A DNA stretch of 64,000 nt from Clostridia bacterium (GTDB taxonomy: Bacteria; Bacillota; Clostridia; Oscillospirales; Acutalibacteraceae), in NCBI GenBank assembly GCA_017550105.1, contig JAFYLQ010000001.1:34566-98565 (forward strand), written 5' to 3'. Positions 1-59,400 of the stretch are shown piece by piece. Every line of letters starts with the position of its first letter. Positions within the stretch are counted from its first letter, which is position 1. The notes beneath the pieces are model-generated. The model did not search any database. It was not told the origin of the DNA and worked only from the letters and a program-made list of their open reading frames with translations. The position numbers and the translations under genes are program-made.

Positions 1-95
1 AACTTCACTTTTATTTTCAAATAAAAACTTCACTATGCTTTAGCAAAACTTCACTTTTTGTGCAACAAAAAACTTCACTTTCTTTCGGGCAGGGC
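1..95. repeat. Word-hairpin half-array: AACTTCACT x4 (1-9, 26-34, 47-55, 71-79) separated by short hairpins; truncated by the window edge
   Basis: Read directly from the sequence. Positions 48-79 recur at 49136-49167 with 1 mismatch. Confidence 0.7.
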
Positions 96-18396: not shown

Positions 18397-18450
18397 AGTT
18401 GGTCCTCCGATAGAGATTTTTTGTGTCTTTATATCTAAAAGAGTGATGTT

Positions 18451-18519
18451 TAAAATCACTTGCGAAGCAAACATCACTGCTTGCAACATCACTACGAAGT
18501 AACATCACTTGACGTAAGG
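18451..18519. repeat. 69-bp perfect direct repeat, left copy (forward-word half-array AACATCACT)
   Basis: Identical to 18988..19056. Contains the GCGAAGC mini-hairpin. Confidence 0.9.
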
Positions 18520-18533
18520 GAAACATCACAATT

Positions 18534-18887
18534 TTAATTATTCTTCTTAGCAGTGGTTATGCTTTTTACGAGCATACGATGAATAACTCCGCAATCCTGC
18601 AATATAGAATCTTTAGTTTTCTCATCAATACAACTAACTCCAAACAGAATATCAATCCAATATTCCGTTTCTACACACTCTTTAAGTGCAATTTGCATTT
18701 TGTTTATAAAATCGGCTTTACTGGCGCCATAATTAGCTTCATATATATTGGCACCAATAGATGTTGCGCTCTTGGTTATCTGATTTATTAAAACTCCACG
18801 TCCTTTTCGTGAGTCTATGTTATCGCACATTTCTATCACATCAATTGCAAATTTTCTTGATCTCGTCCTGAGTTCAGATTCTTTCAT
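18534..18887 (-). CDS. Four-helix-bundle protein (PF05635 / TIGR02436; 23S rRNA intervening-sequence protein / Avd-like family)
   Basis: 117 aa with the family pattern SIGANIYEA...ADFINKMQIALKECVETEYW. RBS AAGGAG. Confidence 0.85.
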   Translation of the reverse strand: MKESELRTRSRKFAIDVIEMCDNIDSRKGRGVLINQITKSATSIGANIYEANYGASKADFINKMQIALKECVETEYWIDILFGVSCIDEKTKDSILQDCGVIHRMLVKSITTAKKNN

Positions 18888-18899
18888 AATTACACTCCT

Positions 18900-19056
18900 T
18901 TGTGATGTTGTGCTGAAGCACAGTGAAGTTATGCTAAGGCATAGTGATGTTTTTATCCACGGATAAAAGTGATGTTAAGTTTGCCCTTAAAATCACTTGC
19001 GAAGCAAACATCACTGCTTGCAACATCACTACGAAGTAACATCACTTGACGTAAGG
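18900..19056. repeat. Mirrored word-hairpin array: 4 reverse words (AGTGATGTT-like), then 4 forward words (AACATCACT-like), each separated by a mini-hairpin
   Basis: Reverse words at 18901, 18922, 18943 and 18968; forward words at 18989, 19007, 19022 and 19038. Includes the right copy of the 69-bp repeat (18988..19056). Confidence 0.85.
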
Positions 19057-19065
19057 CAAACTTAG

Positions 19066-20823
19066 TTATATTCTATACATCGTATACATATTAGCATAAA
19101 TGCCGTTTTTCTGTGTCAATTCCTCGTGGGTGCCGCTTTCGGCAATGCCGTCCTTGGTAATTACAAGAATTTTATCTGCATTTTTAATAGTCGTAAGTCT
19201 GTGGGCAACGGTGATGGTTGTTCTGCCCTGTGCAAGGCGTTCAAGGGATTGCTGAACAAGGAACTCGCTTTCGTTATCAAGGGCGCTTGTAGCCTCGTCA
19301 AGTATAAGTATTTTCGGGTTTTTAAGGAATACTCTTGCAATACTGATTCGTTGCTTCTGACCGCCCGAAAGCTTAACACCTCGTTCGCCGACGTAGGTGT
19401 CAAAGCCGTTGGGAAGATTATCAATAAAATCCTCTGCACCTGCAAGACGAGCCGCCTGACGGATTTCCTCTTCAGTAGCACCGGGCTTACCGTATTCAAT
19501 ATTTTCCCTTACCGTGCCCGAGAAAAGGTAAACGTCCTGTTGCACAACGCCGATATTTTCACGAAGTGATTTAAGCGTTACGTCACGTATATCGGTGCCG
19601 TCAATTTTTATGCTTCCTTCGGTGATTTCATAAAAACGGGGAATAAGGTTGCAAATTGTGGTTTTACCGCCACCCGAGGGTCCCACAAGGGCAAAGCTTT
19701 CGCCGCTACCGATGTTAAGATTTATGCGGTTTAAAATTTCCTCGGTATCATCAGAATATTTAAAGGTTACGTTGTCAAAATCAATTCTGCCCTCGGTAAC
19801 CTCAAGGGGAACGGCATTTTTCTTGTCCTTAATATCGGGGTCGATATCCATAATATCCGCAAAACGCTCAATACCCGTCATACCACGCTGGAACTGTTCA
19901 ACAAAGTCCACAAGCTTTCTGATTGCGGTAAGGAGCATTGCCGCATACATAAGGTATGCAACGTAGTCGGGGGCAGAAATTCTTTCGTTAAGAATGAAAA
20001 ATGCACCGATTACTGCCACAACAATGTACATTATGCCCTCAAAAACTCTGTTTACAGAGCTGTATGAGCCCATAAATTTGTACATTACCGCTTTAATATC
20101 GAGGAACTTTTCGTTTCCGTGCTTGAATTTATTTTCCTCTATATTTTCATTGGCAAAGGATTTAACAACCCTTACACCCAGAAGGCTGTCTTCAATCTGT
20201 GCGTTTAATTCACCAAGTGTCACACGGCTTTCGCGCATACTGTCCTTCATTCGTGTTTTAAAATATTTAAGACACACAGCCATTAAGGGGATAACTGCGA
20301 ACATTATAAGCGTAAGGAAAATATCCATTCTTGCAAGGATTATGAAGGATACAACAATTTTAACTCCCGCTATAAAGAATTCCTCAGGGCAATGGTGTGC
20401 AAACTCCGTAACGTCAAAAAGGTCACTTGTAAAGCGGGACATTATTGTGCCCACCTTGGTTTCGTCGTAGTAGGAGTAGGGTAGCTTGTGAAGATGCTCG
20501 AACATATCACGGCGCATATCCGTTTCCATCTTGGTGCCCATAATGTGACCCACCGACGCCATATAATAGTTGGCAATAGCATCAATTATACGTAAGGCGA
20601 TGTAAATACCGCCCATTGTCAGTATGGTTCTTGCAGTAAGCAAAGCGATGTTTTCAATCGCCGTGTCCGTAATGTGGCGGACAAAAAGAGGCAAAATCAA
20701 TTCGCATATTGTGGTTAATGCCGCACAGAAAAGGTCAAGAAACAACGTTTTAACGTGGGGCTTATAGTAGGGTAAAAATCGCTTAATTAACTTAGCGTTG
20801 CCTGATTTGTTTTTGTTTTTCAT
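19066..20823 (-). CDS. ABC transporter, fused permease/ATP-binding protein (MsbA-like exporter)
   Basis: 585 aa. Walker A GPSGGGKTT, signature LSGGQKQR, Walker B LILDEATS. Confidence 0.9.
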   Translation of the reverse strand: MKNKNKSGNAKLIKRFLPYYKPHVKTLFLDLFCAALTTICELILPLFVRHITDTAIENIALLTARTILTMGGIYIALRIIDAIANYYMASVGHIMGTKMETDMRRDMFEHLHKLPYSYYDETKVGTIMSRFTSDLFDVTEFAHHCPEEFFIAGVKIVVSFIILARMDIFLTLIMFAVIPLMAVCLKYFKTRMKDSMRESRVTLGELNAQIEDSLLGVRVVKSFANENIEENKFKHGNEKFLDIKAVMYKFMGSYSSVNRVFEGIMYIVVAVIGAFFILNERISAPDYVAYLMYAAMLLTAIRKLVDFVEQFQRGMTGIERFADIMDIDPDIKDKKNAVPLEVTEGRIDFDNVTFKYSDDTEEILNRINLNIGSGESFALVGPSGGGKTTICNLIPRFYEITEGSIKIDGTDIRDVTLKSLRENIGVVQQDVYLFSGTVRENIEYGKPGATEEEIRQAARLAGAEDFIDNLPNGFDTYVGERGVKLSGGQKQRISIARVFLKNPKILILDEATSALDNESEFLVQQSLERLAQGRTTITVAHRLTTIKNADKILVITKDGIAESGTHEELTQKNGIYANMYTMYRI

Positions 20824-20968: not shown

Positions 20969-22204
20969 ATGAAAATTATAAAAATCGGTATATTCGGTGC
21001 AGGCCGCGGTGGCACGTTTATTGATAATATCGTCAATAACCACGGCGAGGTTGTTGCCCTTTGCGACAAAAGGGTTGAAGCAATGGAGGAAGTTGCGGCG
21101 GAAATGGAAAATAAACCCGCTATGTATACGGATTTTGAGGAATTCTTAAACCACGATATGGATGCGGTTTTTCTTGCAAATTACTTCCACGAGCACGCCG
21201 GATACGCCATTCGTTGCCTTGAAAAGGACCTGAACGTTATTTCGGAATGTGTCAGCAACGGCACTATGGCAGAGGGCGTAGCGTTAGTAAGAGCCGCAAA
21301 AAAGAGCAAGGGCATTTATATGCTTTCGGAAAATTACCCCTATATGATTTTTAATCAGGAAATGCGAAGGGTTTACGAAAGCGGTGCTTTGGGCAAGGTG
21401 CTTTTTGCCGAGGGCGAGTACAATCACCCGTTTAATCTTGACGATTTGGAATACCACAGACCCTTACGTCCCCATCCCGACCATTGGCGTAATTTCCTGC
21501 CCCGTTCATATTATATTACCCACTCGTTGGCACCCCTTATGTATATTACGGGCTCTTTCCCCGTAAGGGTTTCGGCAATGCCTGTTTTTGAGCCCTTTAA
21601 TGAATACAAGCACGTGGGCTCGGTAGTGGGTGACAGAGCAACAATTATCACCTGCCTTAACGACGATAATTCCGTTTTCCGTGTAACGGGCTGTGCCGCC
21701 TTCGGTGCTCACGAAAACTCATACCGAGTGTGTGGCACCAAGGGTCAGATTGAAAACTTAAGAGGTATGGGCGACAAGGTGATGCTACGCTTCAACGATT
21801 GGGAAAAGCCCGAGGGCTACGAGAACGACAACCTTTACGAGCCCCAATGGAGCCTTGAGGATAAAGAACTTGCGGAAAAAGCAGGGCACGGCGGCGGTGA
21901 TTTCTTTGTAATTAAAGAATTTTTTGACTGCATCCGTGAAAACAGGAGACCTCAGTTTGACGAGCATTTTGCAACAATCTGCTCATCCGTTGCAATTTTA
22001 AGTCACCGCAGTGCATTAGAAAAGGGTATACCTTACGATATACCCGATTTTCGCAATGAAGAGGATTGCGTTAAATATGAAAATGATTTCAGCACACCCA
22101 TTCCGGGTAGTGACGGCAAAAAGCCCGATATGCCCTGTTGCTCACATCCTGATTATAAGCCGAGTTCTGAGCAATTTGAAGCGTATCTTGAAATGTTAAA
22201 GTAA
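20969..22204 (+). CDS. Gfo/Idh/MocA family oxidoreductase
   Basis: N-terminal Rossmann motif IGIFGAGRGG. The ATG at 20969 follows AGGTGG. Confidence 0.8.
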   Translation: MKIIKIGIFGAGRGGTFIDNIVNNHGEVVALCDKRVEAMEEVAAEMENKPAMYTDFEEFLNHDMDAVFLANYFHEHAGYAIRCLEKDLNVISECVSNGTMAEGVALVRAAKKSKGIYMLSENYPYMIFNQEMRRVYESGALGKVLFAEGEYNHPFNLDDLEYHRPLRPHPDHWRNFLPRSYYITHSLAPLMYITGSFPVRVSAMPVFEPFNEYKHVGSVVGDRATIITCLNDDNSVFRVTGCAAFGAHENSYRVCGTKGQIENLRGMGDKVMLRFNDWEKPEGYENDNLYEPQWSLEDKELAEKAGHGGGDFFVIKEFFDCIRENRRPQFDEHFATICSSVAILSHRSALEKGIPYDIPDFRNEEDCVKYENDFSTPIPGSDGKKPDMPCCSHPDYKPSSEQFEAYLEMLK

Positions 22205-22795
22205 ATGACTTGTGTCATTAAGGAATTTTAATTTGGTTTTAATAACACCGTCTTCCTTAAGGTAATTGACTAAGGTAACCCCCGTGTTAAGATGTGAAAA
22301 ATTAAAGTTCTCTTTAAAGGGAAAGTCGAGAGCCGCAAGGACCAAATAGGAGTTAAAGGTGCCGTGTGCCACAAGCACAATTGTTGAACCAAAATCGTTT
22401 TCTGATTTGATTTTATTGATGACGCTTTTTGCACGATTGTAAGCAATTTCATCATTTTCAAACCCCAAAGCTTTACGGGGAAGTATAGTGGCATCGGGAA
22501 TGACCTTAAGTAAATCAGTGTCGGGCAAGCCCGTGTATTCAGGGTCAGTTCCCTTTTCAAGAAGTGAACAGTCAATTATAACGGGCACGTCCTTATGGTG
22601 ATTTTTAATTGCCCCTGCGGTTTTCACCGCTCTTATAAGAGGACTTGTGTAGATTTTATCTATTTTTTCATTTTTAAATCTTGCGCCTAAAAGGTCAGCC
22701 TGATTTTCACCGTTGGGCGTAAGGTCGGTTTCCGTAAAGCCGTCACCGTTTAAATTGCCGTAGGTTTCGCCGTGGCGGACAATATAAATAAACAT
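22196..22795 (-). CDS. Histidine phosphatase family protein
   Basis: 199 aa with the N-terminal RHGET motif. Confidence 0.8.
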   Translation of the reverse strand: MFIYIVRHGETYGNLNGDGFTETDLTPNGENQADLLGARFKNEKIDKIYTSPLIRAVKTAGAIKNHHKDVPVIIDCSLLEKGTDPEYTGLPDTDLLKVIPDATILPRKALGFENDEIAYNRAKSVINKIKSENDFGSTIVLVAHGTFNSYLVLAALDFPFKENFNFSHLNTGVTLVNYLKEDGVIKTKLKFLNDTSHLL

Positions 22796-22810
22796 TAGTT
22801 ATCACCTCTG

Positions 22811-22997
22811 AAATCTTATTTTGCGAAAGCAAAATATATCGAGCCGACAGGTATATCGAGTCGCTTGCGACATATCGAACGCGTAAGCGTATATCGACAG
22901 TCGATATGTTTATCTTTCGATAAACTCGATATATTGCAGAGCAATTCGATATATTTTCACTTCGTTCAAATTCGATATGTTGTGCTTTGCACAACGA
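22811..22997. repeat. Mirrored word-hairpin array: 4 forward ATATCGA words, then 5 reverse TCGATAT-like words, separated by GC-closed mini-hairpins
   Basis: Forward words at 22836, 22853, 22872 and 22891; reverse words at 22901, 22917, 22927, 22946 and 22972. Confidence 0.85.
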
Positions 22998-23009
22998 GTA
23001 TGTAAACAA

Positions 23010-23357
23010 TTAGTTGTTGTTTTTTGCCGTAGTGATTGATGCAATAAGTCGACGTCTTATTGAGCCCGCAAACTTTTTTGTTTCAAAATACTCTTTTTCA
23101 GAAATGGCCTTTTTTCTGAAAATCAACTCAATCCAGTACTCTGTTTCAGCAACCTCTTTCAAAGCGATTTCGAGTTTGTTTATGAAATCGGCACGGCTTT
23201 GTGCGTATTTTGCTTCGTGAATATTGGCGCCGATAGAAGATGAGGAGCGGATAAGTTGATTTTTGTACACAGAGCAACCTTGTATGTTTTCGCACATATC
23301 AGAAATCGTAATGGCGAAAGATATAGAATCCTCACGTAATATGTTTTTATTACCCAT
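23010..23357 (-). CDS. Four-helix-bundle protein (PF05635 / TIGR02436 family), paralogue of 18534..18887
   Basis: 115 aa with SIGANIHEA...ADFINKLEIALKEVAETEYW. RBS AAGGAG. Confidence 0.85.
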   Translation of the reverse strand: MGNKNILREDSISFAITISDMCENIQGCSVYKNQLIRSSSSIGANIHEAKYAQSRADFINKLEIALKEVAETEYWIELIFRKKAISEKEYFETKKFAGSIRRRLIASITTAKNNN

Positions 23358-23372
23358 ATTGTTTCTCCTTAT

Positions 23373-23440
23373 AAATCTTATTTTGCGAAAGCAAAATATA
23401 TCGAGCCGACAGGTATATCGACAGTCGATATGTTTATCTT
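23373..23440. repeat. Short copy of the ATATCGA array
   Basis: 23373..23421 is identical to 22811..22859, and 23422..23440 is identical to 22898..22916. This is the left array with 38 bp deleted between two words. Confidence 0.9.
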
Positions 23441-23554
23441 AAGTATACACTTGCAAAGATAATTATTCAATGTATTTTAAATGTTTCTTGCATTAACAGA
23501 GGAAAGCGTGTAAAATTATAAAAAAGCAAATATCAATAAAGAGGGAATACTTTT

Positions 23555-33974: not shown

Positions 33975-34165
33975 TTAGAGTGAGAGAAGTATACCTTCCT
34001 CACTCCTATCAGCAAGTATTTCGACTCGGTGCATATTTTTCGCCTTCTCAAACAAGTTGTTCAATGGCTGTTTCTCCGTTTTGCGGTATACGGATAGAAA
34101 AATACGTTTTTGCACCTCACGGCGACGGGCTCGTACAGGATTTTCACCTGTTTCCTTGAACTGAT
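33975..34165 (-). promoter_or_regulatory. Cobalamin (B12) riboswitch
   Basis: The minus strand reads GGAAACAGGTGAAAATCCTGTACGAGCCCG (conserved core), followed by a B12-box-like AGAAACAGCCATTG and a downstream hairpin GAGTGAGGAAG / CTTCTCTCACTC. The boundaries are approximate. Confidence 0.75.
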
Positions 34166-34171
34166 AAGGAA

Positions 34172-34199
34172 ATTATACCACAAAATACTGTTTTTGCAA
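34172..34199 (-). promoter_or_regulatory. Promoter TTGCAA-16 nt-TGGTATAAT (extended -10) driving the riboswitch operon
   Basis: Read on the minus strand immediately upstream of the riboswitch. Confidence 0.6.
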
Positions 34200-36222: not shown

Positions 36223-36350
36223 AAATCAGGGGAAGATTTTATGATTGAGTTGTTTTCAACCATAAACCGCCCCTGATTTTAAATTTTAAGACGACAAAAC
36301 CTTGATTTAACAGGGGTTACGGCTCAATCATAGAACCGTCCCCTGATTGG
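36223..36350. repeat. Inverted-repeat element, copy 1 (about 128 bp, roughly 22-27-bp arms)
   Basis: AAATCAGGGGAAGATTTTATGATTGAG pairs with CTCAATCATAGAACCGTCCCCTGATT. Confidence 0.65.
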
Positions 36351-36440
36351 TCATTACAGTTTCGGTAACTCCTGTATTGTAATCATATGTGTAATACGTA
36401 CCGTAGCCGTTTTCGTCATACTCCACCCTGACATAATAAA

Positions 36441-36563
36441 ACCATGGGGCGGTTCTGTGATTGGGGTTTATCCAAAGACAAACCGCCCCTGATTTTAAAA
36501 TTTAAGACAACAAAACTTTGATTTATCAGAGTTTACAACTCAATCATAGAACCGTCTGATTGG
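36441..36563. repeat. Inverted-repeat element, copy 2 (homologous to 36223..36350)
   Basis: GGGGCGGTTCTGTGATTGGGG pairs with CTCAATCATAGAACCGTCTGATT. The interior is about 85% identical to copy 1. Confidence 0.65.
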
Positions 36564-48507: not shown

Positions 48508-49282
48508 TAAATGCAAAATGCAGAATGCAAAATTATCGGGGCTAACGCCGAATTATAGATAAAGTAGTTGCAACGCGAAGCCTAACCTCTCTGCGTAAGG
48601 AGAGAGGGGGCAAGGAACACGACCGCCGCCAGTGGCGGATGAAGGGAGTGTGAGTTGGCGTAGCGGTCAAAATTGTGCGAAGTGAACAACGAGCAAACAA
48701 TTTTGGGCACCGCAAGAGGACTTAACATCATTGAAAGTTATAAATAAAAGTTTTAAGCGTGATAGCAAGATTTTGATTAAATAAAGCTTGTCGGATGGTG
48801 GAGAGTCCTGTTCACTTGCTTTTAGCTATCAGTTCGATAGAACAATAAAACCCCGTAGGGTTTAGGCTTGCCTAAACCGCTAAGTTATTGATAAACCAAA
48901 CGGGCTGGGCAAGCCACAGCCCCTACAGTAATTTATTCTTCAGTTCGATAGAACAACCACAAATCCTTGATATTAATTATGCATTACAAATTACTTCGGT
49001 ATATTCTCCGCAAGGAGTTTATATAGTGTAACAGACCCCCTGTTACACAAGCCATATCTTTCTCTTTCACACCCCACATCCACAGCGGAAGGCTCCTGCC
49101 GAAAGGCGGGAGCTTTCTGCTATGGGAGTAGCCCGACTTCACTTTTTGTGTAACAAAAAACTTCACTAAATAATAGTGGTGGGTAGTTCTCTTGCGGTTT
49201 TTCTTCGGTCGGATAGAAAATATCGAAAATAAACCCCATTGTAAATCTAAAACTAAAATGCTATTATAAACACGGTGATTTT
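48508..49282. other. 775-bp ORF-free, hairpin-dense region containing dispersed repeats
   Basis: Many GNRA-type or GC-closed hairpins. CAGTTCGATAGAACAA occurs at about 48829 and 48941. The AACTTCACT words and a 24-mer are shared with positions 86-112. Confidence 0.6.
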
Positions 49283-56458: not shown

Positions 56459-59400
56459 TTAATTGTTGTTTAAAAGCTCTGCGAATAATTCGTAGTCGGT
56501 TTCGTTAATTGTGCCGTCGTTGTTTAAGTCGCCTGCAATTGTCTGTAATTGGTTGAGCTCGGAAAGAGAGTTGATTACAAGCTCAATTTCCTGATAGTCT
56601 AAAACGTCGCAAACGCCGTCACCATTAACGTCTGATTTCACAACAAGGTAATAGGTCTCTAAAACTGTGCCGTATTTAGTAACCTTTATTTCGGCACCGG
56701 TGCCGTAATAACCGTTTTCGTCCTTGGTTATTTCAATTTCTGCACCGTTTACGGCTTCAATAATACCTGCAACGTCATCACAATTCAAAAGGTCTGTTAC
56801 GATAACGTTGCTGTTTTCTGCAAAGAGCTCGGCGTTCTTTAAGGCAACGTATTCAACGGATTCATCAACAAATACAAAGACCTCTTCGTTTGAAACGGTG
56901 TCTCTGTCCGTAGCGTTTGCCTCAACGCGATAGGTGTAAGGGATGTTCGCCTCAATTGTGTCGGTATATGCTAAGGTTGTACCTGCATCATAAGTCCAGA
57001 TGTACTCAAATTCTCCGTTACCTGCCTTGCGATAGAGAACGTAGCTTTCGGCAAATTCTGTAATCTCCCATGAAACGCGAACCTGAACCTTACCATCGTC
57101 GGTCTTTTCGGGGTTTTCTATTTTAAGACCTGTAACTGCACTGAGGGGAGCGGGGATATAAATTTCAACAAGCTCGGAGGTTGAGGTACCTCTTTCAGCG
57201 TCCTTTGAAACTGCCTTAACAGCGTAGTTGTAATAAACGTCAGTTAAAATATCAGTATCTGTATAGGAGTAGGCAGTTAAGCCCTCCTCTGCGGTAACGG
57301 TAGCAATTTCCGTCCACTCTGTTTCATTCTGATATTTTCTTAAAATAACGTATTCATCAGCGAATTCAACGCTGCCCCAAGTGATGGTTGCGTAGGGCTG
57401 ATTGTTGTTGAAATCCTTAACGTAGTCTGAAATTACAACCTCTGCAAGGGGCGGATAGGGGAATCTTGCACTTGCAGATTCGGTGTTTGCTATTTTACCT
57501 TCACCAACGGCAACAACTGTGTAGGTGTAGGTGGTTCCCTCATCAATTTCAATGTCTGTAAATGAGCCTGAAATTGCCTCGAGCAATACGGGTTCGCCGT
57601 CATTAACTGATTTATAAACCTCAAGAGCGGTAGCATCGGGACATTCAAAGTCAACCTTGACGTAAGCGTAATTTCCGTCGGTTGCAGGAACGTATTCTGC
57701 ATTCACTTTGATTTCAACAAAGTTTGCCATACCGTCACGGTACTGACTTTCGGTTTCATCAAATGTAGCTGAAACTGTGTAGTAGAAGGGCTCGGTTTTG
57801 CCTTCCTCGGTAACGTCAACATATTCGTTGGTTTCGCTTGTTCCGAGCACCTCGAAGGTGTCAGAGCCTTTTGCCTTGCGATAAATTGTGTAGAGGTCTG
57901 CGTTTTCAATTGCATCCCAGGTAAGCGCCGTGCCGTTTTCCGTAACGGTTACGGAGTTGAGTGTGGGAATAATAACCGCAATAGCGGACTGCAGGTTGTA
58001 GGTGCTGCTGTCACCTGTGTCATTAAATGAGCGAACCGCATATTCGTAAGTGATACCGCATTCAACTGTATAGTCAAGGTAGGTGGTTTCGGTTATGCCC
58101 GAAGCAAGTACGGTCCATGAGCCGCCGGGAAGTCTTCTGTAAACGTTGTACTTTGTGGCACCCTTTATTGCCTTCCAGGTTGTTTCGATACAAAGTGAGC
58201 CGTCATCGGTTACAATCTGTTGTGAGGTAAAGTTGGGCTTGCCGAGGCATATTCCTTTTGTTCCTGCAGAGTAATAGCTGCTGAAAACGTTATTTGCATC
58301 AAAGGCACGTACTGTATAGGTGTAGGAATACCCGCTTGCTTTTTTACAACCGTCGTTGTATTTAACGGTGCTTCCGCTTTTTATGGTAGCTATATGAGTC
58401 CATTCTGAGGCATCGTTAATTTTGCGGTATACTCTGTAGCCCGTAGCACCGGGAACCTTGGACCATTGAACCTTTGCACGGTAGCTTGAATCGAAGGTAA
58501 CGGGTTCAAGCTTGGGTGCTTCAAGATACTTTGCAGTAATACCTGTGCCGTTAAAAGCACCTGCGTTTGTATCTGAAAAGGCTTTAACTGTGTAGGTGTA
58601 GGTTTTTCCTGAAACTGTATCCTTGTCCACGAAGGATTTATTTGTGGTAGTACCGATATTTGTCCAGCTTGAACCGTTTTTGCGGTAAACTGCGTATTTT
58701 GTTACGTTGGGGTTGTCGCACTTCCATTGGATTTTTAAACCGTTAACCGTAGCGGCAACTTTTGTGAGTGTGGGTGCGGGAATATAGTCAAAATCAACAC
58801 CGTCAGAATTATAGGAGCTTGTGGATTTGCCACTGAACGCCTTTACGGTGTAGGTGTATTTCCAGTCGTCGCTTTTAGCGGCTTTGTCTGTGTAGGACGT
58901 TGTTTTGCCGTTTTTAATGGTGGCAATTTTTGCCCATTCGTAATCGCTTAAGGAACCACCCTTACGATAAACGTAGTAGCCCTCGGCACCACTTATTGCC
59001 TTCCAACTGATTTTTGCATTACCTGCGGCACCCGTGCCGTTCACGGAAATTACAGGAGTAGCAAGGTACTTGATTGTAAGACCCGTTTTGTTATAACGGC
59101 TTACGAATTTTCCCTCGGCACACTTAACGGTGTAGGTGTAGGAGGTACCGCTTTTTGCAGTTTTGTCGGTGTAGGTTTTGGACTTAGCACCGAGCGTTGC
59201 AATACGTGTCCACGACTTATCACCGGATGCTTTTCTGTAAACGTAGTATTCGGTAGCAGTTGAAAAGGGTGTCCAGGTGATTTTAGGACCTGAAACGGTG
59301 TTTGCTATTGATTTAAGCTCAACAGTCTTTTTGCTGATACGGTCCACGTTGATGGTAAAGGTTTTAAGTGAAGACGTATCTATTGACTTTTCGCCCTCAA

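Follow-up and report, generated by a model that had tools for sequence, protein, structure and literature searches.

What is a mirrored array of one seven-nucleotide word doing beside a small gene for a four-helix-bundle (4HB) protein, between a NUDIX gene and a histidine-phosphatase gene of a clostridial genome? The locus occupies positions 22805..23445 of a 64,000-nucleotide stretch of contig JAFYLQ010000001.1 (assembly GCA_017550105.1; hereafter the window). A first-pass annotation, made from the letters alone, had described it as the second of two 4HB cassettes, built on the word ATATCGA and carrying a duplicated structured leader. Here we report that the gene belongs to family PF05635, that gene and array were inserted together into the 5' untranslated region (UTR) of the phosphatase gene, and that the cassette is a widespread small module of gut and rumen Clostridia whose word is specific to the protein clade. 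The interpretation that we favour, and to which we give about an even chance, is that the array is co-transcribed and that, in the RNA, the cognate pentamer of the 4HB protein reads the repeated words, for autoregulation, processing or insulation.

Architecture of the array and its upstream copy

ATATCGA occurs 17 times on the two strands of the window, against 5.8 ± 2.4 expected and with none of 100 shuffles reaching 17, and 11 of the 17 copies fall inside 22836..23431. In a sliding scan with 250-nt frames, a single 7-mer and its reverse complement are found at least five times only here (eight) and in the arrays of the sister cassette (six and five), every other frame holding at most four copies of one 7-mer. 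Read on the plus strand, the forward words of the main array (22811..22997) start at 22836, 22853, 22872 and 22891 and its exact reverse words at 22901, 22926, 22946 and 22972. Four forward and five reverse words had been announced; the four forward words stand, as do four exact reverse ones, whereas the fifth is a degenerate TCGATAA within the hairpin GTTTATCTTTCGATAAAC. The central palindrome ATATCGACAGTCGATAT is indeed present at 22891..22907, and so are all five mini-hairpins of the annotation.

In the sense orientation, which is that of the minus strand, the array comprises two halves. An A-half (22901..22997) has four ATATCGA words and the hairpins GTTGTGCAAAGCACAAC, ATTTGAACGAAGTGAAAAT, ATTGCTCTGCAAT and GTTTATCGAAAGATAAAC; a CTG apical loop (22898..22900), placed from sequence and folding, separates the innermost forward and reverse words; and a T-half (22811..22897) has four TCGATAT words and the hairpins ACGCTTACGCGT, GTCGCAAGCGAC, ACCTGTCGGC and ATTTTGCTTTCGCAAAAT, followed by AAGATTT. 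The word spacing of the A-half (26/20/25 nt) agrees with that of the canonical A-halves described below. Its spacers, with compensatory changes in the hairpins, are closest to canonical A-halves, and those of 22811..22897 to canonical T-halves. Because of this spacer similarity, we regard the two as a true A-half and a true T-half, both in sense orientation. An origin by inverted duplication of A-halves was rejected, as the reverse-word half resembles canonical T-halves in sense orientation. The array reads as a permuted variant with the order gene, four forward words, CTG, four reverse words and ribosome-binding site (RBS) of the next gene.

Whether taken as RNA or DNA, and on either strand, the array folds with a z-score of about −6 relative to shuffled sequences; the z-scores being equal, a choice between RNA and DNA by folding energy was abandoned. 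Loop motifs were tried as a guide to the strand, the plus strand of 22811..22897 showing GAAA, CUUG and GUAA and the other half GAAA on the minus strand. They cannot settle the matter because the halves are motif-level mirror images throughout the family (UUCG and CGAA).

A short copy on the minus strand (23373..23440) precedes the gene and corresponds to the main array minus 38 bp: in sense, one forward word, CTG, two reverse words, the terminal hairpin ATTTTGCTTTCGCAAAAT and AAGATTT. As annotated, it equals 22811..22859 joined to 22898..22916 (68 of 68 bases identical), and the 38 bp that it lacks are flanked by two GTATATCGA direct repeats. The annotation was right that the duplicated segment stands at both ribosome-binding sites and wrong on the distance: rather than ending 15–20 nt before an RBS, both copies end 15 nt from a start codon and abut the RBS itself (cAGAGGTGataactaATG, atAAGGAGaaacaatATG). 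Pairing of the short copy with the downstream forward-word half, across the gene, would be possible; the predicted minimum-free-energy fold joins the two adjacent halves instead.

The array is not an assembly artefact, a possibility that the annotation had allowed for, because the arrangement recurs across independent assemblies (L001, L005, L007, L008 and L009). Two further contigs (L003, L004) terminate inside the array, 45 nt upstream of the histidine-phosphatase gene. Such arrays plausibly break metagenome assemblies and leave spurious open reading frames (ORFs), for instance 22743..23009. This 88-aa minus-strand ORF covers the entire array, differs between orthologues by indels, is unconserved and is almost certainly spurious.

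Hairpins covary and words stay fixed

When the nested structure was imposed on four orthologues, 98.2% of cells were paired. Compensatory double changes were seen in 8 of 43 hairpin pairs, an example being the series GTTGTGC/GCACAAC, GTTGCAC/GTGCAAC and ATCGCGT/ACGCGAT. None of the 28 word pairs carried such a change, and 26 of the 28 never vary. A helix held only by pairing would drift and the words do not, so that, on the evidence of the alignment, the array is under selection for single-strand structure with its words constrained as sequence.

This pattern bears on a rival explanation, in which the array is a host-processed RNA spacer of the intervening-sequence (IVS) type: RNase III or another host RNase would cut the paired-word helix and separate the guest mRNA, and the 4HB protein would not read the words at all. 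A purely structural helix, however, needs no heptamer repeated eightfold, since identical units invite mis-registration, and its words should not stay invariant while the hairpins covary. Besides, helices of 7–9 bp between four-way junctions are poor canonical RNase III substrates, and the helices of the array measure just 7–9 bp. Features of the wider family that favour such a spacer are given below; taking both sides together, we consider it quite unlikely.

The upstream copy behaves differently from the main array. It is absent in L010 and retains the full four words in L007; its 38-bp deletion is common to the window and L005, where further mutations break one word and the terminal hairpin. 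Because the copy is absent, variable or decayed in relatives, we interpret it as a dispensable secondary duplication and not as an integration footprint; on this comparison, the duplication of part of the array in front of the 4HB gene looks secondary, having taken place later. The two copies within one genome are near-identical (68 of 68 positions in the window; about two differences in L007 by our own count), and their being alike within a genome and different between genomes indicates gene conversion between them.

Insertion into the leader of a host gene

On one side the cassette is flanked by the NUDIX gene and on the other by the host gene, a His_Phos_1 histidine phosphatase by Pfam (22196..22810, minus strand; RBS GAGGTG). 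Three filled orthologous loci (L005, L007 and L010, with 4HB proteins 92, 85 and 82% identical to that of the window) all retain the order NUDIX, 4HB, array, histidine phosphatase. In two empty-site relatives (L093 and L094, phosphatases 82 and 72% identical), the NUDIX and phosphatase genes stand back to back, with a spacer of 118–122 nt that holds no 4HB gene and no array. The L093 spacer reads TTGAAA-N17-TATAAT and then an RBS, i.e. a readable sigma-70-like promoter directly upstream of the phosphatase gene. The window has a comparable promoter, TTGAAT-N17-TATACT, at 23442..23470 on the minus strand (consensus scan, 9 of 12 matches), and an equivalent −35/−10 pair was read by eye in L005, L007, L010 and the empty site L093. 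In the filled sites the host RBS GAGGTGAT follows the array. Since the shared −35/−10 pair lies upstream of the 4HB gene and the host RBS after the array, the cassette occupies the former 5' UTR: RBS, gene, four forward words, CTG and four reverse words were inserted downstream of the −10 box and ahead of the histidine-phosphatase RBS. The promoter at 23442..23470 would then yield a single transcript that spans short copy, 4HB gene, array and phosphatase gene, and no minus-strand terminator is predicted between 23470 and 22196.

The empty sites thus confirm that the cassette is an insertion, as had been supposed. They do not support the route then proposed, Campbell-type recombination of a circular cassette with a resident array. 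The annotation had pointed to relatives with a single array and no 4HB gene; L093 and L094 have no resident array upstream of the phosphatase gene, and no recombinase was found among the neighbours. As these relatives lack both components, the array arrived with the gene.

Could the arrays nevertheless work as DNA and mark the ends of a mobile element that is small and non-autonomous? In that case, which puts the annotation's idea in a more general shape, the words would be sub-terminal sites for a recombinase or transposase acting in trans, or for a DNA-acting 4HB protein, and the direct repeats would derive from the integration or excision of a circular or tandem form. In line with this, the presence of the cassette is polymorphic between close relatives, and half-array direct repeats flank the gene in both window cassettes, L021 and L030. 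GCGAAGC and GCGAAAGC, both found among the loop motifs, are classic stable DNA mini-hairpins. On the other hand, the Pfam annotation of the neighbours shows no integrase, transposase, relaxase or other recombinase in or beside the cassettes. The comparison of filled with empty sites, the latter being without a resident array, defines no consistent target-site duplication and no exact junctions, the junction sequences being too diverged. Moreover, among orthologous species that share the insertion (4HB proteins 82–100% identical), the main array is under purifying selection with compensatory hairpin changes, whereas L005 has a mutated flanking copy and L010 none, the opposite of what is expected from a footprint. 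In addition, where the array lies and which way it points are strictly coupled to the gene's RBS and start codon. Even with the family-level features reported below that speak for mobile ends, we hold this explanation to be unlikely.

One TCGATAT (TTTTGTCGATATATG) lies at L093:2455-2470, where it separates the −35 box of the histidine-phosphatase promoter from the −10 box; we put the chance of its random occurrence there at a few per cent. It was considered as an att-like core and set aside, as this place is away from the position of the cassette.

The cassette gene encodes a PF05635 protein

The 4HB gene (23010..23357, minus strand; RBS AAGGAG within 23358..23372) encodes a protein of 115 aa that matches Pfam PF05635 with 70.6 bits (cut-off 33.8) and TIGR02436 with 80.3 bits (cut-off 24), the family of S23p and of the Avd fold. 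Its AlphaFold2 model has four helices at a predicted local distance difference test (pLDDT) score of 94.5. Foldseek matched the model to 2RLD, 2GSC and 4DWL (Avd) with template modelling (TM) scores of 0.8–0.9, those against 2RLD (BT_0352) and 2GSC (Xcc0516) being 0.85–0.9, and Avd chains of the reverse transcriptase (RT)–Avd–RNA particle of a diversity-generating retroelement (DGR) were also among the best structural matches. The RxxxSxxxNxxE motif, R37-S41-N45-E48 in this protein, is invariant or nearly invariant across the alignment. The closest solved relatives, 2RLD and 2GSC, comprise five chains each; on this basis and that of the literature, the window protein would form a homo-pentameric ring. 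Its sole other homologue in the window is the 117-aa PF05635 protein of the sister cassette (18534..18887, minus strand; phmmer E = 5e-31; TIGR02436 94.3 bits). Both the paralogue and the claim of one cassette type with two different words are thereby borne out.

A family of cassettes with clade-specific words

A protein search returned more than 7,700 relatives, many of them on very short contigs, and our closer analysis covered 80 genome loci of Oscillospiraceae, Acutalibacteraceae, Christensenellaceae and other Clostridia. At least six copies of one 7-mer were present in 75% of 73 upstream windows (330 nt), against 0.5% of 611 controls. The canonical order, in sense, is promoter or upstream tRNA, 5' hairpin, four reverse words, central hairpin and linker, four forward words, RBS and ATG. 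Words are spaced by about 25/19/19 nt in the reverse half and about 26/23/22 nt in the forward half, and the last word lies 14–53 nt from the ATG, RBS included; sigma-70-like promoters were read by eye just upstream of canonical arrays. All canonical spacers are self-complementary, though nearly every sequence differs, and minimum-free-energy folds show nested word–word helices with hairpins at four-way junctions.

Within this family the word follows the protein cluster. ATATCGC was found in 17 of 17 members of one cluster and ATATCGA in 15 of 15 of another (one in a shifted 7-mer register), and further clusters use AC(A/T)TCAC, ATTTCA(C/T/A) or CAATTCA. Genomes with two or three cassettes carry different words, and a word is fixed per protein clade across different host families, which should not be so if the array were an IVS-type spacer.

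Canonical arrays have, after the central hairpin, a linker in which the 3' arm of hairpin 1 is repeated. Word 1 plus the 5' arm of this hairpin therefore has two pairing options, inside hairpin 1 or with the centre. Across 18 arrays, hairpin 1 is 96% paired with double changes in five of seven pairs, and the alternative helix between word 1 plus arm and the centre is 89% paired with double changes in 8 of 14 pairs. We take this covariation as evidence for a putative RNA conformational switch in the canonical arrays.

The halves do not always keep their canonical places. The order of the window array (gene, four forward words, four reverse words) also occurs at an unrelated locus, L026. Elsewhere we found A-half, gene, T-half (L011, L018, L074 and L085), T-half, gene, A-half (L041), T-half, A-half, gene, T-half (sister cassette 1, L021 and L030) and tandem forms. 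The window, L011 and L026 share a 3' module of the T-half, consisting of the last word, a hairpin ATTTGC..GCAAAT, AAGxATT and the RBS of the next gene. Shuffling of half-arrays around the gene by word-mediated duplication and deletion explains these forms, and the 38-bp deletion is a local example of it. A circular or tandem intermediate behind the rotated orders is possible but not required. Mobile DNA ends could also account for rotated orders (A-G-T, T-A-G, G-A-T and T-G-A, where G is the gene), as they could for gene-less versions resembling miniature inverted-repeat transposable elements (L091, L092 and L132) and for the many family members on very short contigs, where repeats end up. The gene-in-loop forms, in turn, with an A-half before and a T-half after the gene (L011, L018, L074, L085), are what an excisable IVS-type spacer would look like.

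Both of these rivals draw on the distant relatives as well. A metagenome scan for nearer orthologues yielded none above 74% and exposed relatives with tandem heptamers: PF05635 genes, 36–50% identical, flanked by forward heptamers upstream and reverse-complemented ones downstream. L125 has six AGGAGTT-type copies upstream (four exact) and five AACTCCT-type copies downstream (four exact), L127 has AATTAGG 11 times and AATTCCT nine times, and L129 and L124 have flanks of the same kind. Together with the heptamers at the Coxiella IVS ORF (see below), these flanks tie the protein family to heptamers beyond the clade of the window, which counts for the model that we favour. Placed on both sides of the ORF, such inverted tandem heptamers also resemble terminal inverted repeats; equally, the heptamers, in inverted runs that number five to six in L125 and about nine to eleven in L127, could pair into a long stem of the IVS type. 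L120 and L128 are also among the distant PF05635 genes flanked by long tandem heptamer runs. In L125, the upstream AGGAGTT is a Shine-Dalgarno sequence and the downstream AACTCCT its anti-sequence.

Viral contigs gave only seven weak matches, which argues that the cassette is not mainly phage-borne and also weighs against mobile ends. GTGAAAT-clade cassettes lie about 40–200 nt after co-oriented tRNA genes with eight different anticodons (L050, L053, L059, L060, L064, L071, L072, L076, L079 and L082), and in L048 the cassette stands directly behind the RNase P RNA. Together with the positions in 23S rRNA discussed below, these sites suggest a preference for stable-RNA transcription units. For an IVS-type spacer they are favourable, given that many cassettes of the clade begin some 40 nt past a co-oriented tRNA gene, or directly past RNase P RNA, where separation from the stable RNA would be needed. 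In L020 and L037, the 5' hairpin GATTTCATCGAAGATGAAATC ahead of the first word consists of the forward and reverse words of another clade (ATTTCAT/ATGAAAT), which may be the trace of a nested insertion or of cross-talk between clades.

A proposed model: an RNA array read by its own pentamer

In the model that we favour, the array would work at the RNA level, on one transcript with the 4HB gene and the host gene. Its forward and reverse words would pair in a nested manner into a quasi-continuous helix of identical 7-bp units, from which the mini-hairpins would branch off at perfect four-way junctions. The identical words would be the recognition units of the cognate homo-pentamer, much as the five protomers of Avd grip a stem-loop of the DGR RNA; we propose this role because all eight words are identical and are specific to the protein clade. 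Through translation, processing or stability, binding would control both the 4HB mRNA and the gene behind the array, the likely outputs being 4HB autoregulation and control or insulation of the downstream host gene. It would also allow a promoter-less guest cassette to sit in a host transcript, like the S23p-encoding IVS in 23S rRNA.

Several points weigh against this model. Transcription of the array, the strand concerned and the contact between protein and RNA are all things that we infer, and both strands fold equally well, as RNA and as DNA. The co-variation of word and protein could be plain co-inheritance. Four words per half are set against five protomers per pentamer. The permuted window array is without the covarying centre, so whatever switch the canonical centre may provide cannot operate identically here. 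Arrays with no adjacent 4HB gene exist (L132 and some original members of the Gut-1 RNA family, see below), and in L010 the 5' leader of the 4HB gene is array-free, the array lying only downstream of the gene.

A broader version of the same idea, which we put forward tentatively and regard as rather doubtful, is that PF05635 pentamers in general are sequence-specific readers of heptamer repeats, each clade having a 7-nt code of its own that recurs eight times in its RNA leader, with orthogonal pairs coexisting in a genome. If true, the cassette would be a guest at the RNA level, able to regulate or insulate itself at any landing place, be it in rRNA, after tRNAs or between operon genes. PF05635 proteins have solved structures and have been functionally blank since the 1990s, apart from Avd in DGRs; the proposal would assign a function both to the S23p/IVS ORF, known for 30 years, and to Gut-1, so far an orphan RNA, and would suggest that the Avd of DGRs was recruited from such an RNA-gripping module. 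It would explain why PF05635 genes are found in 23S IVS, in cas operons, after tRNAs and between housekeeping genes. Besides, it would provide sets of orthogonal RNA–protein pairs for engineering.

Relation to known systems

The 5' half of the GTGAAAT-clade arrays is covered by Rfam RF01706 (Gut-1), with 19 above-threshold matches at 15 loci (51–78 bits, cut-off 50). Fifteen of the 19 are on the plus strand directly upstream of a PF05635 gene, and the few minus-strand ones fall on the mirrored half. Gut-1 has been described as a 77-nt stand-alone small RNA of unknown function with no gene association, classed as a certain RNA, not cis-regulatory and restricted to the human gut (Weinberg et al. 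2010, PMC2864571). That description mentions neither a mirrored second half nor a link to PF05635 nor a word specific to the clade, although the forward-word half is present in the unannotated flank of the raw alignment of these authors. Like Gut-1, with its GUGAAAU words, its C(UUCG)G loop and its origin in gut metagenomes of Clostridia type, the window array repeats one heptamer word (TCGATAT, not GUGAAAU) between short covarying hairpins; C(UUCG)G loops lie on the sense strand of arrays. It differs in its word ATATCGA, in being permuted and without a centre, and in its position downstream of the gene. In covariance-model searches, 22805..23445 gave no Gut-1 match even at E ≤ 5 and no other Rfam family at permissive thresholds, and the sister array gave a weak, sub-threshold Gut-1 match (19003..19068, 20.6 bits). 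Our searches of the literature on PF05635, TIGR02436, S23p and Gut-1 brought up no paper connecting the protein with the arrays. Rfam has listed Gut-1 since 2010, from gut metagenomes only and with its function unknown, and the module described here offers a candidate protein partner.

The IVS of 23S rRNA encode the same protein family. S23p-encoding IVS are known from Leptospira, Coxiella, Xanthomonas and others; that of Coxiella has three to four GACAGAT copies just upstream of the S23p ORF, and RNase III excises its stem-loop as it does S23p-encoding IVS in general (PMC4990558), a precedent that favours the IVS-type spacer. Shared with the window cassette are an ORF with complementary flanks able to enclose it and the status of a guest element within a host transcript, for which a mobile origin was proposed long ago (PMC4990558). 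The window cassette differs in lying between protein-coding genes, in having arms broken by mini-hairpins instead of a continuous 28-bp stem, and in that its paired halves are adjacent with the gene outside the stem; no rRNA was found in the window, and hence no location in helix 25 or 45.

Avd (4DWL; ribonucleoproteins 8UB7, 8UBB and 8UBE) has the same fold, with TM scores of about 0.8–0.88, and demonstrably binds a structured RNA: in the DGR particle one RNA stem-loop is in contact with each of the five protomers of Avd via equivalent residues. Yet sequence identity is just 11–13%, and the proposed RNA partner here is a repeat array, not a DGR spacer. We rejected identity with a DGR: there is no RVT family among the neighbours within about 9 kb, and a template/variable repeat pair is likewise missing. 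Around each of the 4HB genes, out to about 10 kb, the long direct repeats consist of those belonging to the cassettes and of diverged ones between paralogous ABC-transporter genes.

A repetitive structured RNA beside a small protein that may bind its units as an oligomer also recalls type III toxin–antitoxin systems of the ToxIN type, in which a repetitive RNA would neutralise the harmful small protein encoded alongside. The repeated RNA unit directly upstream of the gene, the several orthogonal versions per genome and the PF05635 genes noted inside cas loci and around DGRs fit such a pair. The window words, by contrast, are mirrored with hairpin spacers where ToxIN has 36-nt direct tandem units, no terminator stands between array and gene, and the fold is that of the non-enzymatic Avd barrel and not of a nuclease. 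PADLOC defence-system models gave no match. With a gene in L010 that has no array upstream, where that of a type III antitoxin would lie, and orphan arrays that have no adjacent gene, we regard a toxin–antitoxin function as very improbable.

Homo-oligomeric rings matched to spaced short-word repeats in 5' leaders, with control over the gene downstream, have precedents in TRAP with its GAG/UAG repeats and Hfq with its A-R-N repeats. Their folds are unrelated to the one here, the words of the window have complementary partners and hairpin spacers, and binding in our case is a proposal only.

Other arrays and repeats in the window

The sister cassette 1 lies on the same strand. Its canonical array (18900..19061, minus strand), ahead of its 4HB gene, has in sense four GTGATGT words, a centre, three exact ACATCAC words and degenerate copies, and we read by eye a helix between its 5' flank and its centre, AAGTTTGCC with GGCAAACTT, equivalent to the alternative helix with the centre in other canonical arrays. 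Downstream of the gene, a reverse-word half-copy (18440..18531, minus strand; 74 of 75 positions identical to 18987..19061) lies ahead of the PNP gene. The whole of cassette 1 is absent from L091 and L092, the cassette-2 4HB proteins of which are 92 and 85% identical to that of the window. There, the spacer between the ABC-transporter and PNP genes holds another element (L091:13299-13506 and L092:13313-13616) with four CGTAATT and four AATTACG copies, the heptamers forming a stem of about 30 bp around 110 or 215 nt of unrelated non-coding sequence.

A third array, with the word ACTTCAC/GTGAAGT, is cut by the window edge (1..80) and is homologous to the cassette 1 array but inverted. A full copy at L132:4560-4735 is an orphan with complete 4+4 words that follows an ABC-transporter gene, ends in a hairpin like an intrinsic terminator and has no adjacent 4HB gene. 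A relic with two ACTTCAC words (49136..49168, plus strand) matches 41..79 at 90% identity, and after it comes GGTGGGTAGTTCTCTT, which is also found in the non-coding insert of L092 at the cassette-1 site.

The only Rfam match in the window at gathering thresholds is a cobalamin riboswitch (RF00174, 56.8 bits) at 33994..34180 on the minus strand. Finally, a 118-nt direct repeat at 36223..36556 (81% identical, copies 216 nt apart) and a five-copy family of 33-nt repeats at 57506..59149 are probably internal repeats of coding sequences.

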